DNA of 64,000 nucleotides from a virus, in IMG/VR virus record IMGVR_UViG_3300022204_000004, positions 1 to 64,000 of that record. One strand, 5' to 3'. The position numbers and the translations under genes are program-made. Of this stretch, positions 24,803 through 36,998 are shown one piece after another (within the stretch, counting starts at the first letter, position 1; every line of letters begins with the position of its first letter). The notes under the pieces were generated by a model that was not told where the DNA came from, searched no databases, and saw nothing but the letters and a program-made list of their open reading frames with translations.

Positions 24803-25139
24803 CTATGATTATTTTATATTCATGTATGCCTATGATTTTACCAAACGAATTATTATTAATGAGTTTATCCGTAAAGTGGTCATAAGCTTCCATATTTATA
24901 AATTCATGCCATCGAGTATCGTAAACACCATCTTTCTTAATGGTCATCTTTACTTGCACTCTATTGTTGTCTTTTACTATAATCCTCTTAAATGGAGTAT
25001 AGTTTGTATTCATCCATGAATGACCTTTTGAATGAAGAAAATCCCAAATGGCTTCATCATTCCAATCACTGTCTATTTCGTACACGAATACGTCATCAAA
25101 GTGACTATCGGTAACAAGTATGGTTATCAAATATCCCAT
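24780..25139 (-). CDS. Hypothetical protein
   Basis: Operon packing. Confidence 0.6.
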   Translation of the reverse strand: MGYLITILVTDSHFDDVFVYEIDSDWNDEAIWDFLHSKGHSWMNTNYTPFKRIIVKDNNRVQVKMTIKKDGVYDTRWHEFINMEAYDHFTDKLINNNSFGKIIGIHEYKIIIDEKDKHS

Positions 25140-31928: not shown

Positions 31929-32252
31929 TTAATTAATCCCCTTTAATAGCTTACACCTCGGTACCTGTACAAAGCCTGACCTAACAATACCAAGAGGCGA
32001 TGATACAATACCAGCCTCCATAAGAGATGCCAATATTCCTCCATTCTCAGAATAGTCCTTGATGAAAACCTCATCAGACTCCAATTCCCTGTCAGGTAAA
32101 TTCACTGAAGCCATAGCAATAGGTTCTCCACCATCACTATCTACCAACTCCAATGCCTTCCTACCATTTACATATTGTTGTAACAACACATCACAGTTCC
32201 ACTCCCGAAACTTACATGTGCCTATCTTTTTGTTGAAAAAATCTCTTTCCAT
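31929..32252 (-). CDS. DUF4313-like protein
   Basis: YVNGRKALEL...GEPIAMASVNLP...FIKDYSENGG...SGFVQVP. Confidence 0.65.
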   Translation of the reverse strand: MERDFFNKKIGTCKFREWNCDVLLQQYVNGRKALELVDSDGGEPIAMASVNLPDRELESDEVFIKDYSENGGILASLMEAGIVSSPLGIVRSGFVQVPRCKLLKGIN

Positions 32253-32285
32253 TTGTTATAATTTATTTATCCTAAAAACCAATTA

Positions 32286-32648
32286 AAAGTGGCTCCCTAT
32301 AACCACTTTACAATAATGAGCATAAACGCTGATAAGCCACTCCAAGCCTATCCAAAGCATCTAACAACAACTATAAGCCTACCCGTTAGCAATCAAACAA
32401 GTCTAATTATTAACCAAATAATGAACAGATAAGCAGAGAATAGCAGCGTCTAGACAGTTCGCTTCGTGTGTCTTAGTGTGGCTTAATAGCTATAGAGATA
32501 TAATACTATATATACTCTCTTTAGCTTAAATCAGCGTTAAGCCCAGTGTTTATGAGGGTTTACAGCGATTTAACGGCTTGAAAAAGTGGTTCTGTGTGAC
32601 CACTTTCTATCCAATATTAGCCAAAAGTGGTCCGTAATAACCACTTTT
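32286..32648. repeat. Three palindromic sites AAAGTGG(T/C)-N8-ACCACTTT (putative RepL operators/iterons; candidate origin)
   Basis: 32286-32309, 32583-32606 and 32624-32647 have identical arms and spacing but different spacers. Confidence 0.8.
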
Positions 32649-32675: not shown

Positions 32676-32683
32676 TATATTTG
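32676..32683 (+). promoter_or_regulatory. -7 promoter element (TATATTTG) of the RepL-like gene
   Basis: TAnnTTTG 22 nt upstream of the ATG; lies inside the 12-mer TGTATATTTGAC, which is duplicated at 33113-33124. Confidence 0.75.
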
Positions 32684-32705
32684 ACTGTTCGCAAAACAAC
32701 ATATT

Positions 32706-33110
32706 ATGGCAAGTAACCTAGAGATCCATTCTCACATATCGACTTATCTTGAGAGCCAACGTACAGACATCCTAACGGATGACTTCGGTTACTCTACCTA
32801 CACGGCTCCCAATACAATGTTCCACATGCATAATGCAATGCCCGAGATCATGATAGCTATGCCTCCTCGCGTCCTCAAGGTTTGGCTTCGTAGTATCTCT
32901 CGTCTTAAACGAAACCACGACCCTGTTATTGCCTGTACCATTGTCATGGGCTACACGCACTACAAGGATATCGTGTCCAAAGGCTCCTACTACAAAGCCG
33001 TTAAACAGCTTGAAGAGGACAAGTTTCTGATACCTACCCTCAATAAAAAGATTTATATTGTTAATGTTAAGCATGTCAACAAACTTTATAAGCCTAAGTT
33101 TGAGATATAG
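32706..33110 (+). CDS. RepL-like winged-helix replication/regulatory protein
   Basis: VLKVWL...VSKGSYYKAVKQLEEDKFLIPT...IYIVN wHTH pattern of the RepL family; a lone counter-oriented gene with its own promoter. Confidence 0.65.
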   Translation: MASNLEIHSHISTYLESQRTDILTDDFGYSTYTAPNTMFHMHNAMPEIMIAMPPRVLKVWLRSISRLKRNHDPVIACTIVMGYTHYKDIVSKGSYYKAVKQLEEDKFLIPTLNKKIYIVNVKHVNKLYKPKFEI

Positions 33111-33114
33111 TTTG

Positions 33115-33122
33115 TATATTTG
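33115..33122 (+). promoter_or_regulatory. -7 promoter element (TATATTTG) for a small RNA
   Basis: TAnnTTTG 4 nt after the RepL stop; no + strand ORF follows. Confidence 0.7.
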
Positions 33123-33126
33123 ACAT

Positions 33127-33198
33127 GCATAATGATGGTGTTTTTGCGAACAACTTCATAACAGAGCCACTTAAACTTCCTGCTAAGTGGCTCTTGTC
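33127..33198 (+). ncRNA. Putative trans-encoded antisense sRNA against the RepL leader/AUG
   Basis: 33128-33152 is complementary to 32686-32708 (22 bp, 1 mismatch, 2 bulges); ends in the hairpin AGAGCCACTTA...TAAGTGGCTCT. Confidence 0.7.
33163..33194. terminator. 11-bp hairpin between convergent units
   Basis: AGAGCCACTTA / TAAGTGGCTCT; U-tracts are weak. Confidence 0.65.
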
Positions 33199-33200
33199 AT

Positions 33201-33731
33201 TTATCTTTGTTCTGACATTAGATTGGGATTAACTATTCTTAAGTTCTCAGAACAGTCTGCCAATTTCTTGACGTTCTTCACAAGCTCATAGCGTAGCCAT
33301 TCGCCTTTACTACGTGACTCAAACTTCCATCTGTCAAGCTTAACACCTAATGGGTGCATCATCTCCTCTTTCTTGCTGATGGCCTCATTGACCAGCTCTA
33401 GTCGATAATGCTCAGGGATATCACTGTTGCCAGTAGGCACAAAGTGCTTTAGCCTGAAAGGGTTCTCATGGATCTCTTGGCTCATGTTGTCGGAGCAATA
33501 GGTTGTTCCCACATACTCCTGACCAGGCAACAAGTGAGGTGTTGTACCTCGTCTGAGCCTACTGGCCAACTTGTTGCTGAGCTCCACAGTAGCCTGTGTC
33601 CATGGAGAGTTCGGAGGAAACTGAGTCCTCATACAATAGTAACCTGTCAATGGTTCCATACCATCAACCACTTCGTGTGTTGGGTTTGCTTTAACCAAGC
33701 AATACTCAATTCTAACTTCTTTTGCATTCAT
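33201..33731 (-). CDS. Early hypothetical protein
   Basis: Operon packing. Confidence 0.65.
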   Translation of the reverse strand: MNAKEVRIEYCLVKANPTHEVVDGMEPLTGYYCMRTQFPPNSPWTQATVELSNKLASRLRRGTTPHLLPGQEYVGTTYCSDNMSQEIHENPFRLKHFVPTGNSDIPEHYRLELVNEAISKKEEMMHPLGVKLDRWKFESRSKGEWLRYELVKNVKKLADCSENLRIVNPNLMSEQR

Positions 33732-34157: not shown

Positions 34158-35072
34158 TTATGCAGGGATAGGTTCTGAAACTGTTACAGCCTTTGGCATG
34201 ATAGCCTTGACTGTGCTCTTGACTGCTCGCTGTGGAGCTGTAAGTATGGCTTTCGCTCTGTCATCTATAGCTTGTTTGATTTGATCACGATCATCATCGG
34301 TGATATCAAGCTTGTGAATGATAAGGGCTTCGCCATCTCGTAATAGGTCAGTGCCTTTCTGCATCTGTTTCACAATGAACTTACCAATGTTGGTTGCTCC
34401 TTGTGCTGGTGTGTGTAGGCTTGTGCCTAATCCGAATGTTACTGCTCCCGCAGTCTTTCTGCTGTACCAATTCACTTTGGTGAACATGGTTACAGGCTGT
34501 TGTACTTGTTGCTCTTGTGGAGCGGTTGTTTGTTGTTCCATTTCTTTGTGTGTTTTAATGGGTTCAACTATTGGTTGAGGACTTTCCTCAACTTCTTCTT
34601 CGTCTATTTCCAACTGTTCTTCGACAGACTCTATGTCTGCTTCTGATAGTTGTGACTTGGAGTAGACTACTCCATCTGGGTCTACTGCGTAGTCGTCTTG
34701 GTCGTCGTCAGGACCGACATCGTAATGGTCAGTGTATGCCTGTTCATCGGCATACGGATCTTCGTCCGGGTCTTCGTCCTCGACTGTAGCTGTTCCGAAG
34801 TTTGGAACAGGTCCGAATGCATTCTCAAGGTCGTCCTTGATGTCGCTCGGTAGCTCGGCCACGTCTACTGCTTTAGTGCTCATCGTCGGTGGATTCTCTA
34901 CTTTGTAATCATCCCCGAAGTTTGACTTCATAGCTCTGAAGTATTGACCTCTGGTCATCCCGTTATCACGGTCAACTTCTTTACTGTGGATGAAGTGATC
35001 TCTACTTCCGTCCTCGAACTCTAGCATGAAGCCTTTGGCTGTCTCTACTACGATTGCATTTACTTTACTCAT
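34158..35072 (-). CDS. Early protein with a highly acidic central region
   Basis: DEDPDEDPYADE...DDDQDDY...EIDEEEVEE tract. Confidence 0.75.
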   Translation of the reverse strand: MSKVNAIVVETAKGFMLEFEDGSRDHFIHSKEVDRDNGMTRGQYFRAMKSNFGDDYKVENPPTMSTKAVDVAELPSDIKDDLENAFGPVPNFGTATVEDEDPDEDPYADEQAYTDHYDVGPDDDQDDYAVDPDGVVYSKSQLSEADIESVEEQLEIDEEEVEESPQPIVEPIKTHKEMEQQTTAPQEQQVQQPVTMFTKVNWYSRKTAGAVTFGLGTSLHTPAQGATNIGKFIVKQMQKGTDLLRDGEALIIHKLDITDDDRDQIKQAIDDRAKAILTAPQRAVKSTVKAIMPKAVTVSEPIPA

Positions 35073-35111
35073 TTGATTTATATTTAAAGGTTAATAATTA
35101 TTTATTGTTTA

Positions 35112-35282
35112 CTATTTTGCATGGTGTCTGTAGCTTTTATATGCGGCTACGCCTCCATCTATTATTCCGAATATCCCTGCGACTGCATGTTTGATACCGG
35201 TGTTGATGACATGTTGTGCAACAGCTGTTGTGTTTTCTACTTGTTGCTCTCTCCTTGATTTTGGTGTCTGAATTGTGATCAT
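35112..35282 (-). CDS. Small early protein (56 aa)
   Basis: Read by hand: MITIQTPKSRREQQVENTTAVAQHVINTGIKHAVAGIFGIIDGGVAAYKSYRHHAK*. Confidence 0.55.
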   Translation of the reverse strand: MITIQTPKSRREQQVENTTAVAQHVINTGIKHAVAGIFGIIDGGVAAYKSYRHHAK

Positions 35283-35461
35283 GACTTGTTGTTTTAATTG
35301 TTTGTTTGTGTCTCCGTTGGTCTTAGGCGGTTGACTATACCTCTTGATGACATATCAAGTATCGCTCTTAATATGTCTGTTTGGGTTAATGATTTATAAT
35401 TGATTTTAATAGTTCTTTAATTTCCTTTTTAATAGCCTGATGATTGACAGGCTTAACCTTC

Positions 35462-35734
35462 TTAAGCATTGGTTACGGCTTTTAGTTTCTCTGATTTATC
35501 CATGAAATCGACTAGTTTATCTATGACTTTGGGATTGGTATATACCTTGGCCATTAGATCTACCATAGTTTTGACTTGTTGGATGATTGCTTTGAGCTCT
35601 GATTGTTCTTCTTCTGGTGCTCCTAGCTCTTGCATTGTTACTTCTGCTATGACTTCCATTAAGTTTACTCCTGAGTGTACTAAGGGTACTAATGTGTCAC
35701 TGATTTCTGATGTGATTTGTTCTCTTGTTTTCAT
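35462..35734 (-). CDS. Small helical early protein
   Basis: A-rich leader; followed by a hairpin at 35434-35453. Confidence 0.65.
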   Translation of the reverse strand: MKTREQITSEISDTLVPLVHSGVNLMEVIAEVTMQELGAPEEEQSELKAIIQQVKTMVDLMAKVYTNPKVIDKLVDFMDKSEKLKAVTNA

Positions 35735-35736
35735 GT

Positions 35737-35937
35737 TTAATTGTATTTATTTATTAATGATTCGATTTTGCGTTCAAGTATTCCTGTCCTAGCCTGTACC
35801 TTGGTGTGATAATGGAATGATACATACCTTGGTATTTTCTTAATAGCTCTCTTGAAGTTGAACTCGTTTAATAGCTTGTTGTTTGTAGCTATTTGTTGTT
35901 GGTATCTCTCGATACGTTGTTGAATATTTGCATTCAT
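35737..35937 (-). CDS. Small coiled-coil early protein
   Basis: Operon packing. Confidence 0.6.
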   Translation of the reverse strand: MNANIQQRIERYQQQIATNNKLLNEFNFKRAIKKIPRYVSFHYHTKVQARTGILERKIESLINKYN

Positions 35938-35977
35938 GATTGTTGTTGTCGATTGATAATCTGCTGACCACAGGTTT

Positions 35978-36091
35978 TTAATTGTTAATACAGTTTATAC
36001 ATATTGTTGTTCCAGGCATTAATGGTCCTACGTCGGCATAACAGCCTCCACATTTAGAACATTCTTCAGGGTGATTGCGTGTATCTTCCAT
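35978..36091 (-). CDS. Mini zinc-finger protein (37 aa)
   Basis: Read by hand: MEDTRNHPEECSKCGGCYADVGPLMPGTTICINCINN*. Confidence 0.55.
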   Translation of the reverse strand: MEDTRNHPEECSKCGGCYADVGPLMPGTTICINCINN

Positions 36092-36093
36092 GA

Positions 36094-36255
36094 TTAGCGA
36101 TGTATTGCATAAGCACAAGCGGAAGGCAGTGACTTAATGAAGTTAATAATGCAGTGAATACGATGTCTGCGAGCAAGTGTAAGTTGCTCTTTTGATTGCA
36201 AGTAAGCCTCGTATTGAGCTTCAGCAATTTCAGGTAATGATGAGTAATGTCTCAT
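36094..36255 (-). CDS. First gene of the leftward module (53 aa)
   Basis: Read by hand: MRHYSSLPEIAEAQYEAYLQSKEQLTLARRHRIHCIINFIKSLPSACAYAIHR*. Confidence 0.5.
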   Translation of the reverse strand: MRHYSSLPEIAEAQYEAYLQSKEQLTLARRHRIHCIINFIKSLPSACAYAIHR

Positions 36256-36501
36256 GATTAAAAAGGATTTAGTTAAAACTTAAAAGACTCTCTTTTAAGC
36301 GATATATTATTTGAGGGGGGCTACCCAAAAACGAAACATCGATGGGGATCAAATGATATAGTGTTCCGCGAGCGAGGCTTTTTTAAAAGGGGGGGCTAGT
36401 TGTGTGCCACACAGAGGCGTGGGGGTATTCTTACGGGTCAAAAAATAATTTTGGATAGGTTATGAAGAATTGTTATATTGTGTGGGGATTAATTAATATT
36501 T

Positions 36502-36553
36502 AACCCTTTCCGGAACTTGTCAGAGAGTATCTTCAAACGGAAAGGGTTTTTTT
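36502..36553 (+). terminator. Terminator-like hairpin with a long loop
   Basis: AACCCTTTCCG...CGGAAAGGGTT followed by a T-tract. Confidence 0.7.
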
Positions 36554-36615
36554 GTATATTAGCGGTATTATGAATCAGCTTTAATTAGCTAAGGAGGTTC
36601 ATGGTAGATTTGGGT

Positions 36616-36648
36616 GGTTGAGCGGCAGGGATGTCGCTCACCTTTTTT
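36616..36648 (+). terminator. Intrinsic terminator
   Basis: GGTTGAGCGGCA GGGA TGTCGCTCACC TTTTTT. Confidence 0.7.
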
Positions 36649-36794
36649 ATATGGGTTTTAAAAAAATATCGCGAACCCTACGGGCTGTATATTAGGGTGT
36701 TGCGGGGGCGGTGTTTGGATTATACATTATTTTTTCATAGTTTTGTTATATAAAATCGATACAACTATGGAGTGTTATTTGAATAACCAAGGAT

Positions 36795-36826
36795 GAAACC
36801 CTTACTTTTGCGAGTAGGGGTTTCTT
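36795..36826 (+). terminator. Terminator-like hairpin
   Basis: GAAACCCTTAC...GTAGGGGTTTC; TAGTTTTG promoter element upstream at 36738-36745. Confidence 0.6.
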
Positions 36827-36843
36827 AGTTATAGTTGTTAGAT

Positions 36844-36975
36844 ATGGAAGAAGAGAAGGAAAAAGAGGGATTTGACATGAGGCACATGTACACCTTTCCA
36901 AAGGAATATATTTTCACACAGAGAGTTTGGTTTGATTACTCAAAATTCTGTAATAATTTAAAAACGTATATTTGA
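36844..36975 (+). CDS. Small hypothetical protein (43 aa)
   Basis: Read by hand: MEEEKEKEGFDMRHMYTFPKEYIFTQRVWFDYSKFCNNLKTYI*. Confidence 0.4.
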   Translation: MEEEKEKEGFDMRHMYTFPKEYIFTQRVWFDYSKFCNNLKTYI

Positions 36976-36998
36976 TACATAACTTTAAATTTTTTATC

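Follow-up and report, generated by a model that had tools for sequence, protein, structure and literature searches.

In the lytic replicon of phage P1, a repressor-controlled promoter is followed by the repL gene, and the origin oriL is located inside repL. Plasmid initiators are typically subjected to dual transcriptional and antisense control, as exemplified by CopG and RNAII in pMV158 and by CopB and CopA in R1. Another well-described arrangement is the ori of phage lambda, which comprises four closely packed O sites and an AT-rich region of ~40 bp inside the O gene. RepL-like genes constitute the main argument for a plasmid-like life of the crAss-type phages and, to our knowledge, nothing is known about the DNA targets of their RepL-like proteins. 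For crAssphage (Carjivirus communis), an origin was predicted directly upstream of repL, with ~2.6 kb of near-zero skew alongside; this origin is a prediction with coverage support, and the RepL proteins were found by means of a Pfam profile (PMC10983915).

In this work, we analyzed an intergenic locus of a tailed, distantly crAss-like phage with a Bacteroidota-type host, whose record spans 76,921 bp; the studied window corresponds to the first 64 kb of this record. A preliminary description of this DNA had interpreted three spaced palindromes, next to a gene encoding a 134-aa protein (P0001), as the sites of an autoregulated initiator together with its origin. From this proposal, self-regulation by the protein is most likely, and private pairs of dyads are found at the promoters of related loci; the origin was left unsupported by the strand skew and by the absence of both a broad unwinding element and a DnaA box. 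We therefore favor, with a probability of roughly 0.58, the reading that the three palindromes (O1, O2 and O3) are operators of the neighboring homodimeric 134-aa winged-helix protein. The features of the locus are the following:

31929-32252, - strand: first gene of the leftward operon (107 aa; weak DUF4313 / phrog_37545), downstream of O1
32286-32309, no strand: O1, AAAGTGGC-N8-ACCACTTT, 34-57 nt upstream of the ATG (32252) of the leftward gene
32494-32520, no strand: short AT-rich dyad AGAGATATA...TATACTCTCT, an imperfect palindrome of ~27 bp with 78% A+T
32526-32573, no strand: weak inverted repeat TTAAATCAGCG / ACAGCGATTTAA, with 18-nt arms that are 72% complementary
32583-32606, no strand: O2, AAAGTGGT-N8-ACCACTTT, promoter-distal member of a tandem pair
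32624-32647, no strand: O3, AAAGTGGT-N8-ACCACTTT, 41 bp from O2
32676-32683, + strand: -7 box TATATTTG of the 134-aa gene, of the Bacteroidota TAnnTTTG type, part of the 12-mer TGTATATTTGAC
32684-32708, + strand: mRNA leader and start codon, target of a small RNA (sRNA) by complementarity
32706-33110, + strand: gene of the 134-aa winged-helix protein P0001, RepL-like by fold and language-model features only, predicted homodimer
33113-33205, + strand: second promoter copy and RNA of ~75 nt, with a -7 box at 33115-33122 and an anti-leader part at ~33128-33152

Several of these features recall the systems mentioned above. With phage P1, the locus shares the tight control of an initiator-type gene by operators, as well as antisense transcription; however, P1 RepL is about twice as long, the P1 operator is bound by the C1 repressor and not by RepL, the P1 origin lies inside the gene, and no sequence relationship to P0001 was shown. 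Dyad-operator repression combined with an antisense RNA over the translation start resembles pMV158 and R1, from which this locus differs in that P0001 appears to be self-controlling, the RNA is trans-encoded downstream on the same strand, and the replication role is putative. As in the lambda ori, where they are bound by dimers, dyad-symmetric repeats are found near an AT-rich stretch, but here there are two sites plus one located 297 bp away, and the AT-rich dyad is only 27 bp long. The closest homologue of P0001 in a cultured phage is gp103 of Tenacibaculum phage Gundel_1 (Pachyviridae; 24% identity, tblastn E 3e-5), a podophage of ~78 kb with one recognised DNA replication protein; gp103 belongs to the P0001 family, is annotated as hypothetical, and is located ~1.5 kb from the terminal repeat in a co-directional row, 5 bp after the preceding gene and without an upstream operator region. 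Regarding crAssphage, both phages display a small RepL-type gene at the edge of the replication-strand block, with a near-zero-skew zone alongside; conversely, the P0001 family is invisible to the Pfam RepL model, its gene is inverted relative to the module, and it is accompanied by a downstream antisense sRNA, whereas none is described for crAssphage (PMC10983915).

Genome context

The completeness of the phage record was estimated at 97% with CheckV, and its first 145 bp are repeated at the record end. The large terminase and the portal matched the crAss-type PHROGs 6681 and 6547, with the large terminase displaying ~25% identity to Crassvirales terminases. A leftward block at 13-36 kb includes genes for a DnaB-type helicase, a 5'-3' exonuclease, an HU-like protein, a methylase and PRTRC/ThiF-type genes, and the structural genes are found in rightward blocks along with an ORF of 3,965 aa. 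Near-identical DNA is carried by contigs from sediment and wetland metagenomes; when the 31-36 kb segment was compared by blastn with the phage collection, no match was obtained, no tRNA was found, and Rfam returned nothing credible on 31.5-37.6 kb.

On the leftward side, a conserved ATCCTAA(A/T)A block (TTTTTAGGAT on the - strand) was identified at 32268-32280 and in equivalent places of the related loci L002-L005 and L008, preceding the leftward gene's start by 15-25 nt in all of them. Since no TAnnTTTG box was found on the - strand within 30.1-38.2 kb, the leftward genes may be transcribed from another promoter type.

Three exact palindromes

The palindromes of the AAAGTGG(T/C) type, with constant spacing and unrelated spacers, were fully corroborated: AAAGTGGY-N8-RCCACTTT occurs in exactly three copies in the full 76,921-bp genome, and AAAGTGG-N10-CCACTTT was recovered with 0 mismatches at 32286-32309, 32583-32606 and 32624-32647. 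When up to two mismatches were allowed, a single extra match of poor quality appeared at 24873; the shuffle expectation was 0.41 matches, and seven matches were reached in 0 of 100 shuffles. Identical arms flank three unrelated 8-nt spacers (TCCCTATA, TCTGTGTG and CCGTAATA), and the start-to-start distances are 297 bp and then 41 bp. The positions relative to the genes were also as initially described, with two copies adjoining the promoter of the 134-aa gene (O2 and O3, before the ATG at 32706) and one upstream of the leftward operon (O1, before 32252). From the end of O3, the distance is ~5 nt to the presumed -33 TTG and 28 nt to the -7 box.

The AAGTGG hexamer is over-represented in the whole window on both strands (53 copies versus 32 +/- 5 expected; 53 were reached in 0 of 100 shuffles), and its copies are numerous on the + strand at 57-63 kb. 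It had been pointed out that the hairpin at 33163-33194, downstream of the 134-aa gene, reuses the CCACTT/AAGTGG half-site; these letters are literally present, but the halves face the opposite way, and the terminators of the relatives reuse none of their own half-sites. Given this orientation, the lack of conservation in the relatives and the genome-wide over-representation of AAGTGG, the reuse is probably a coincidence. For its wrong-facing halves and its non-conserved reuse, the hairpin was discarded as a fourth operator; a centromere (TubR-like) role of the palindromes was likewise discarded, as only three dyads are present and the TubR matches are weak and generic.

The 134-aa protein

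P0001 was not assigned to any Pfam or NCBIfam family, and PHROGs gave phrog_20023, which has no assigned function. An exhaustive HMMER search yielded a family of ~40 representatives, all of ~130-180 aa, and P0002 is a homologue with 82% identity. No relatives in viral contigs were recovered by a single-protein scan, and a profile search of a 5.8-billion-protein set returned no Pfam-labelled relatives.

An AlphaFold2 model based on the family alignment (pLDDT 95) displays an N-terminal helix, a beta-hairpin and a winged helix at residues 40-126, the latter aligning to many winged-helix domains (Z 6-8.5, rmsd 2.1-3.4, 63-85 residues aligned). The winged-helix fold is common to many unrelated families, and the resemblances found in the PDB, which are generic (STAND, ORC/Cdc6, CRP, Fur, TubR and pPS10 RepA WH1), inform on fold and not on function; at E<=0.001, the Foldseek search of the PDB was without matches.

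The identification of the protein as RepL is weakly sustained. In its favor, the best Foldseek match among predicted viral structures was Gundel_1 gp103 (E 2e-9), followed by models that bear the labels 'replication protein', 'plasmid replication initiation protein' or RepL and come from crAss-like phages and others (E 7e-5 to 4e-4), and PF05732 was carried by 23 of the 30 nearest clusters in the ESM Atlas (score 0.95); in both resources, the labels are automatic. Conversely, the Pfam RepL model (PF05732) found nothing in P0001 at E<=1, matched 1 of 36 family members (E 0.11), and gave no six-frame match in this genome at E<=10 or in the records of five relatives at E<=1; cr6_1 showed no RepL match. 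P0001 is not a Pfam RepL member, and the term 'RepL-like' denotes a remote resemblance.

The homodimer prediction for P0001 reached a score of 0.80 (best of 3 controls, 0.00), with at least 97% contact agreement in the runs and a partner pLDDT of at least 89. Among proteins of solved structure, 20 of 30 one-chain pairs and 1 of 23 single chains attained the homodimer mark, counts which hold only roughly here because our own alignment was used. The model lends support to a symmetric dimer, rather than proving it.

Promoter, leader and small RNA

A second TATATTTG-type box is placed directly after the stop codon, followed by 60-100 nt that end in a GC-rich hairpin and a T-run. In the window, the whole 12-mer that contains the -7 box of the 134-aa gene recurs here, at 33113, and the terminator hairpin (33163-33194) is followed by a T-rich tail. 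The promoters were predicted from the TAnnTTTG motif only, which is not enriched genome-wide, and therefore the calls were based on its position and conservation.

The sRNA is complementary to the whole leader and the AUG of the 134-aa gene mRNA in 8 of 8 loci, and the leader-sRNA duplex is stronger than those of shuffled sequences in every one of them (p 0-0.018). The duplex of the window has -24.0 kcal/mol, compared to -13.0 +/- 2.8 for the shuffles; L002 combines a long leader with a long complement (-42.8 kcal/mol), and in L005 the complementarity involves an entirely different sequence. This sRNA layer is more strictly conserved than the operator dyads. The sRNA is encoded on the same strand as its target, 3' of the stop codon and behind its own copy of the promoter (i.e., trans-encoded), and it differs in this from the cis-encoded antisense RNAs of plasmid initiator cassettes, which lie opposite their target.

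Related loci and co-variation of sites and protein

Nine further distinct loci, obtained from metagenomes, were read. As in the window, the gene stands alone on the + strand in L002-L005, flanked by genes of the - strand, and the convergent neighbor (33201-33731 in the window) is also conserved beside it. Most relatives carry two tandem dyads just upstream of a Bacteroidota-type TAYATTTG box. Two identical AGTAGTC-N5-GACTACT dyads, 52 bp apart, are present in each of L003 and L004, and two CAGTACCAA-N6-TTGGTACTG dyads, 33 bp apart, in L005; one or two AAAGTRN-type dyads were found in each of L008 (AAAGTGC-N8-GCACCTTT), L010 (ATAGTAGTAC-N5-GTACTAT) and L002 (weaker AAAGT...ACTTT sites). In a distant subgroup, L015 (1403-1467) and L019 (1373-1440) harbor two repeats of 22-25 bp, 41-42 bp apart and with weak dyad symmetry only, and there the gene is followed by another gene, with no sRNA. 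In every one of these loci, the sites immediately precede a TAYATTTG box. The dyad spacings of 33, 41 and 52 bp approximate whole helical turns. The proximal dyad is centered at ~-30 in L003, L004 and L010, covering the -33 element; in the window and L005 it is centered at ~-53, about two turns further upstream, a position that suits activation as well as repression. The third, distal site near the leftward gene (O1) is exclusive to this phage and absent in the relatives read.

The dyad sequences are private to each lineage, and the half-sites group with the recognition helix of the protein, SKKYYY/SRKYYY corresponding to AGTAGTC, SRNTFY/SRNSFF to AGTAC, and SKGSYY to AAGTGG, a correlation drawn from few independent lineages. 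L006 has neither dyads nor an upstream non-coding region and keeps the promoter, the leader and the sRNA; thus, the operators are dispensable in some lineages.

The sole homologue found in a bacterial genome is located at 3830-4328 of L014, a 220-kb contig of a Flavobacteriaceae MAG, where it is split by a frameshift into ORFs of 114 aa and 64 aa. Its immediate neighbor is a tyrosine integrase, on the border of an island that includes RadC, DpnII-like and SRA-domain genes. Dyads of the AGTAGTA type are situated between the promoter and the start of this homologue, and no sRNA was observed downstream of it.

Proposed regulation of the 134-aa gene

Exact dyads matched with a predicted dimer, sites placed by the protein's own promoter, and the co-variation of sites and recognition helix are the features that we found in common with autoregulators, and the lineage-private dyads at the promoter, tracking the recognition helix, are what sustains the operator reading. 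P0001 most likely controls its own promoter. In the proposed mechanism, P0001 dimers would bind O2 and O3, which, as their centers are 41 bp apart (about four helical turns), would be exposed on the same DNA face; binding beside the -33/-7 promoter would set the transcription of the P0001 gene, most likely by repression. Through O1, in this phage only, the same protein may also influence the leftward operon at its start, possibly by forming a loop with O2/O3. The sRNA would provide a second control layer, as its pairing with the whole leader and the AUG should block translation. Simple autoregulation accounts neither for the conserved AT-rich dyad nor for the ~270-bp conserved non-coding stretch that separates O1 from O2.

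Is the locus a replication origin?

The alternative that best survives is a replication origin, wherein a RepL-like initiator bound to O1-O3 would melt the AT-rich dyad and recruit the phage DnaB-type helicase and the host replisome, with the sRNA and autorepression acting as plasmid-like copy control. This proposal is compatible with the operator role, although we judge it less likely; we regard it as unlikely but of appreciable weight, because the AT-rich dyad is conserved, no other initiator is apparent, and crAssphage offers a parallel.

The AT-rich imperfect palindrome at ~32494-32520, already recognised in the preliminary description, is unique in the genome (AGAGATATA...CTCT) and ranks 5th among its least stable 30-bp windows. 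It is preserved in six loci, where the arms show compensatory changes (AGAGG/CCTCT in L004, AGACA/TGTCT in L002 and L008); in the consensus fold of the intergenic region of six loci, it alone is retained. It is located 62 bp from O2 and 184 bp from O1. Further points in favor of an origin are the replication and RepL labels of the viral Foldseek matches and ESM Atlas clusters, the dual transcriptional and antisense control typical of plasmid initiators, and the absence of matches to polymerase, primase or other initiator families among the leftward-module ORFs that were scanned, a subset of the total. In addition, GC skew is near zero at 33.0-35.2 kb, directly adjoining the 134-aa gene, as is the ~2.6-kb zone beside repL and its upstream predicted origin in crAssphage (PMC10983915).

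Against this possibility, the putative unwinding element spans ~27 bp only, whereas origins of the iteron or lambda-ori type would be expected to have at least ~40 bp flanked by initiator sites, and on a 100-bp scale the region is unremarkable, 15% of the windows in the genome being less stable than its least stable one. The intergenic region has 63% A+T, no richer than the genome, no DnaA box was found within 32.2-32.7 kb, and the Pfam RepL model finds nothing in the protein. The inverted repeat AAATCAGC...GCGATTT that had been noticed beside the dyad does exist, but it is weak, with arms that are 72% complementary; its right arm GTTTACAGCGATTT is a semi-conserved block in the relatives. Most loci retain both the tandem pair and the AT-rich dyad. 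O1 is not conserved, and the whole upstream non-coding region is missing in L006 and in Gundel_1 gp103, two points that count against an origin.

The switch in strand composition lies elsewhere. Phage skew mostly follows gene direction and constitutes weak evidence on origins, and per-gene third-position skew was computed in addition. The + strand GC skew is -0.24 at 31-33 kb and +0.06, with an AT skew of -0.37, at 35-36 kb, where the genes are on the - strand; it was thus correct that the + strand is C-rich on the left and G/T-rich at 35-36 kb in spite of the - strand genes, but the sign changes at ~35.2 kb and not at the palindromes. A cumulative GC-skew minimum had been expected near 32.5-33 kb and was found at 35,177, the curve falling steeply to 33.0 kb, remaining nearly flat to 35.2 kb and rising afterwards. 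The coding-strand GC3 skew of the - strand genes is mostly positive up to 34,156 and consistently negative at 34,158-36,255 (-0.17 to -0.43), with the flip at ~34.15 kb; most of the genes in this negative stretch are also very A-rich at third positions (AT3 skew +0.30 to +0.68 for the four genes up to 35,937), in contrast to the - strand genes to their left, and the 134-aa gene itself shows the left-side GC3 bias. There is, then, a real composition switch beyond the effect of gene direction, and it is located 1.5-2.6 kb to the right of the palindromes; an origin of the iteron or lambda-ori type would be expected to show it at the initiator sites.

The switch coincides better with the 36.3-37.0 kb divergent non-coding region than with the palindromes. 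This region of 734 bp (36256-36989) separates divergent blocks, is G-rich on the + strand (177 G, 88 C), and carries G-runs and several hairpin-plus-T-run elements; it corresponds to both contig ends of the complete relative G001, in which one copy of a 131-bp repeat spans 322-453 and another is at the contig end. The 734-bp region is a candidate for a genome terminus, a repeat or a non-coding RNA region, and a rival place for the origin. Nearby, a 43-nt intergenic element (35945-35987) shows ~84% DNA identity in L002, L003 and L004, phages whose proteins are ~40% identical.

Other readings of the palindromes

A more elaborate proposal, which we consider distinctly unlikely, is that 32.25-33.2 kb would constitute a plasmid-type minimal replicon, in which an origin and a RepL-like initiator would be combined with autorepression and an antisense RNA encoded in trans, and through which this lytic-looking phage, for which neither a polymerase nor a primase was recognised, could persist as a copy-controlled episome in sediment Bacteroidota.

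That the palindromes are bound by another phage protein or by a host factor, with the 134-aa protein acting elsewhere, is highly improbable: the convergent neighbor conserved beside the gene in L002-L005 would be a possible source of such a binder, but the site sequences change together with the recognition helix of the 134-aa protein, the sites accompany its gene in distant subgroups with otherwise different neighbors, and their dyad symmetry fits the predicted homodimer.

It is scarcely credible that the palindromes are RNA hairpins (i.e., weak intrinsic terminators or processing sites insulating the intergenic transcript from the flanking genes), even though O3 (+ strand) and O1 (- strand), each followed by T-rich tails, were picked up by a terminator scan and the - strand intergenic RNA folds unusually well, given that the stems are weak (-6.6 to -11.7 kcal/mol, with loops of 6-10 nt), the T-tails are part of the palindrome, and terminators need neither identical arms with unrelated loops nor a lineage-private arm sequence. 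The sites fit a dimeric protein rather than hairpins, as originally suggested, with free loops, identical arms and a neighbor predicted to be homodimeric. The - strand RNA of 32253-32582 has a folding energy of -92 kcal/mol (z = -3.6; 0 of 100 shuffles), compared to z = -1.7 for the + strand, and no RNA structure other than the AT-rich dyad was found to be conserved across the relatives in this stretch.

Implications for phage biology

The operator reading brings together several novel elements, namely a protein family invisible to Pfam, operator variants specific to each lineage, and their coupling to a downstream antisense RNA. With a 134-aa dimer, three 24-bp sites, lineage variants of these sites in the relatives and an adjacent regulatory RNA, the locus constitutes a compact and testable system. 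If P0001 were purely transcriptional, the 'RepL' labels in such phages would be poor evidence for plasmid replication. Replication of the fragment, on the other hand, would provide a replicon to Bacteroidota phages and to hosts that are short of genetic tools, and, were the minimal-replicon proposal true, a phage-plasmid or carrier state would be implied, extending the phage-plasmid proposal made for crAssphage to a profile-invisible protein family.
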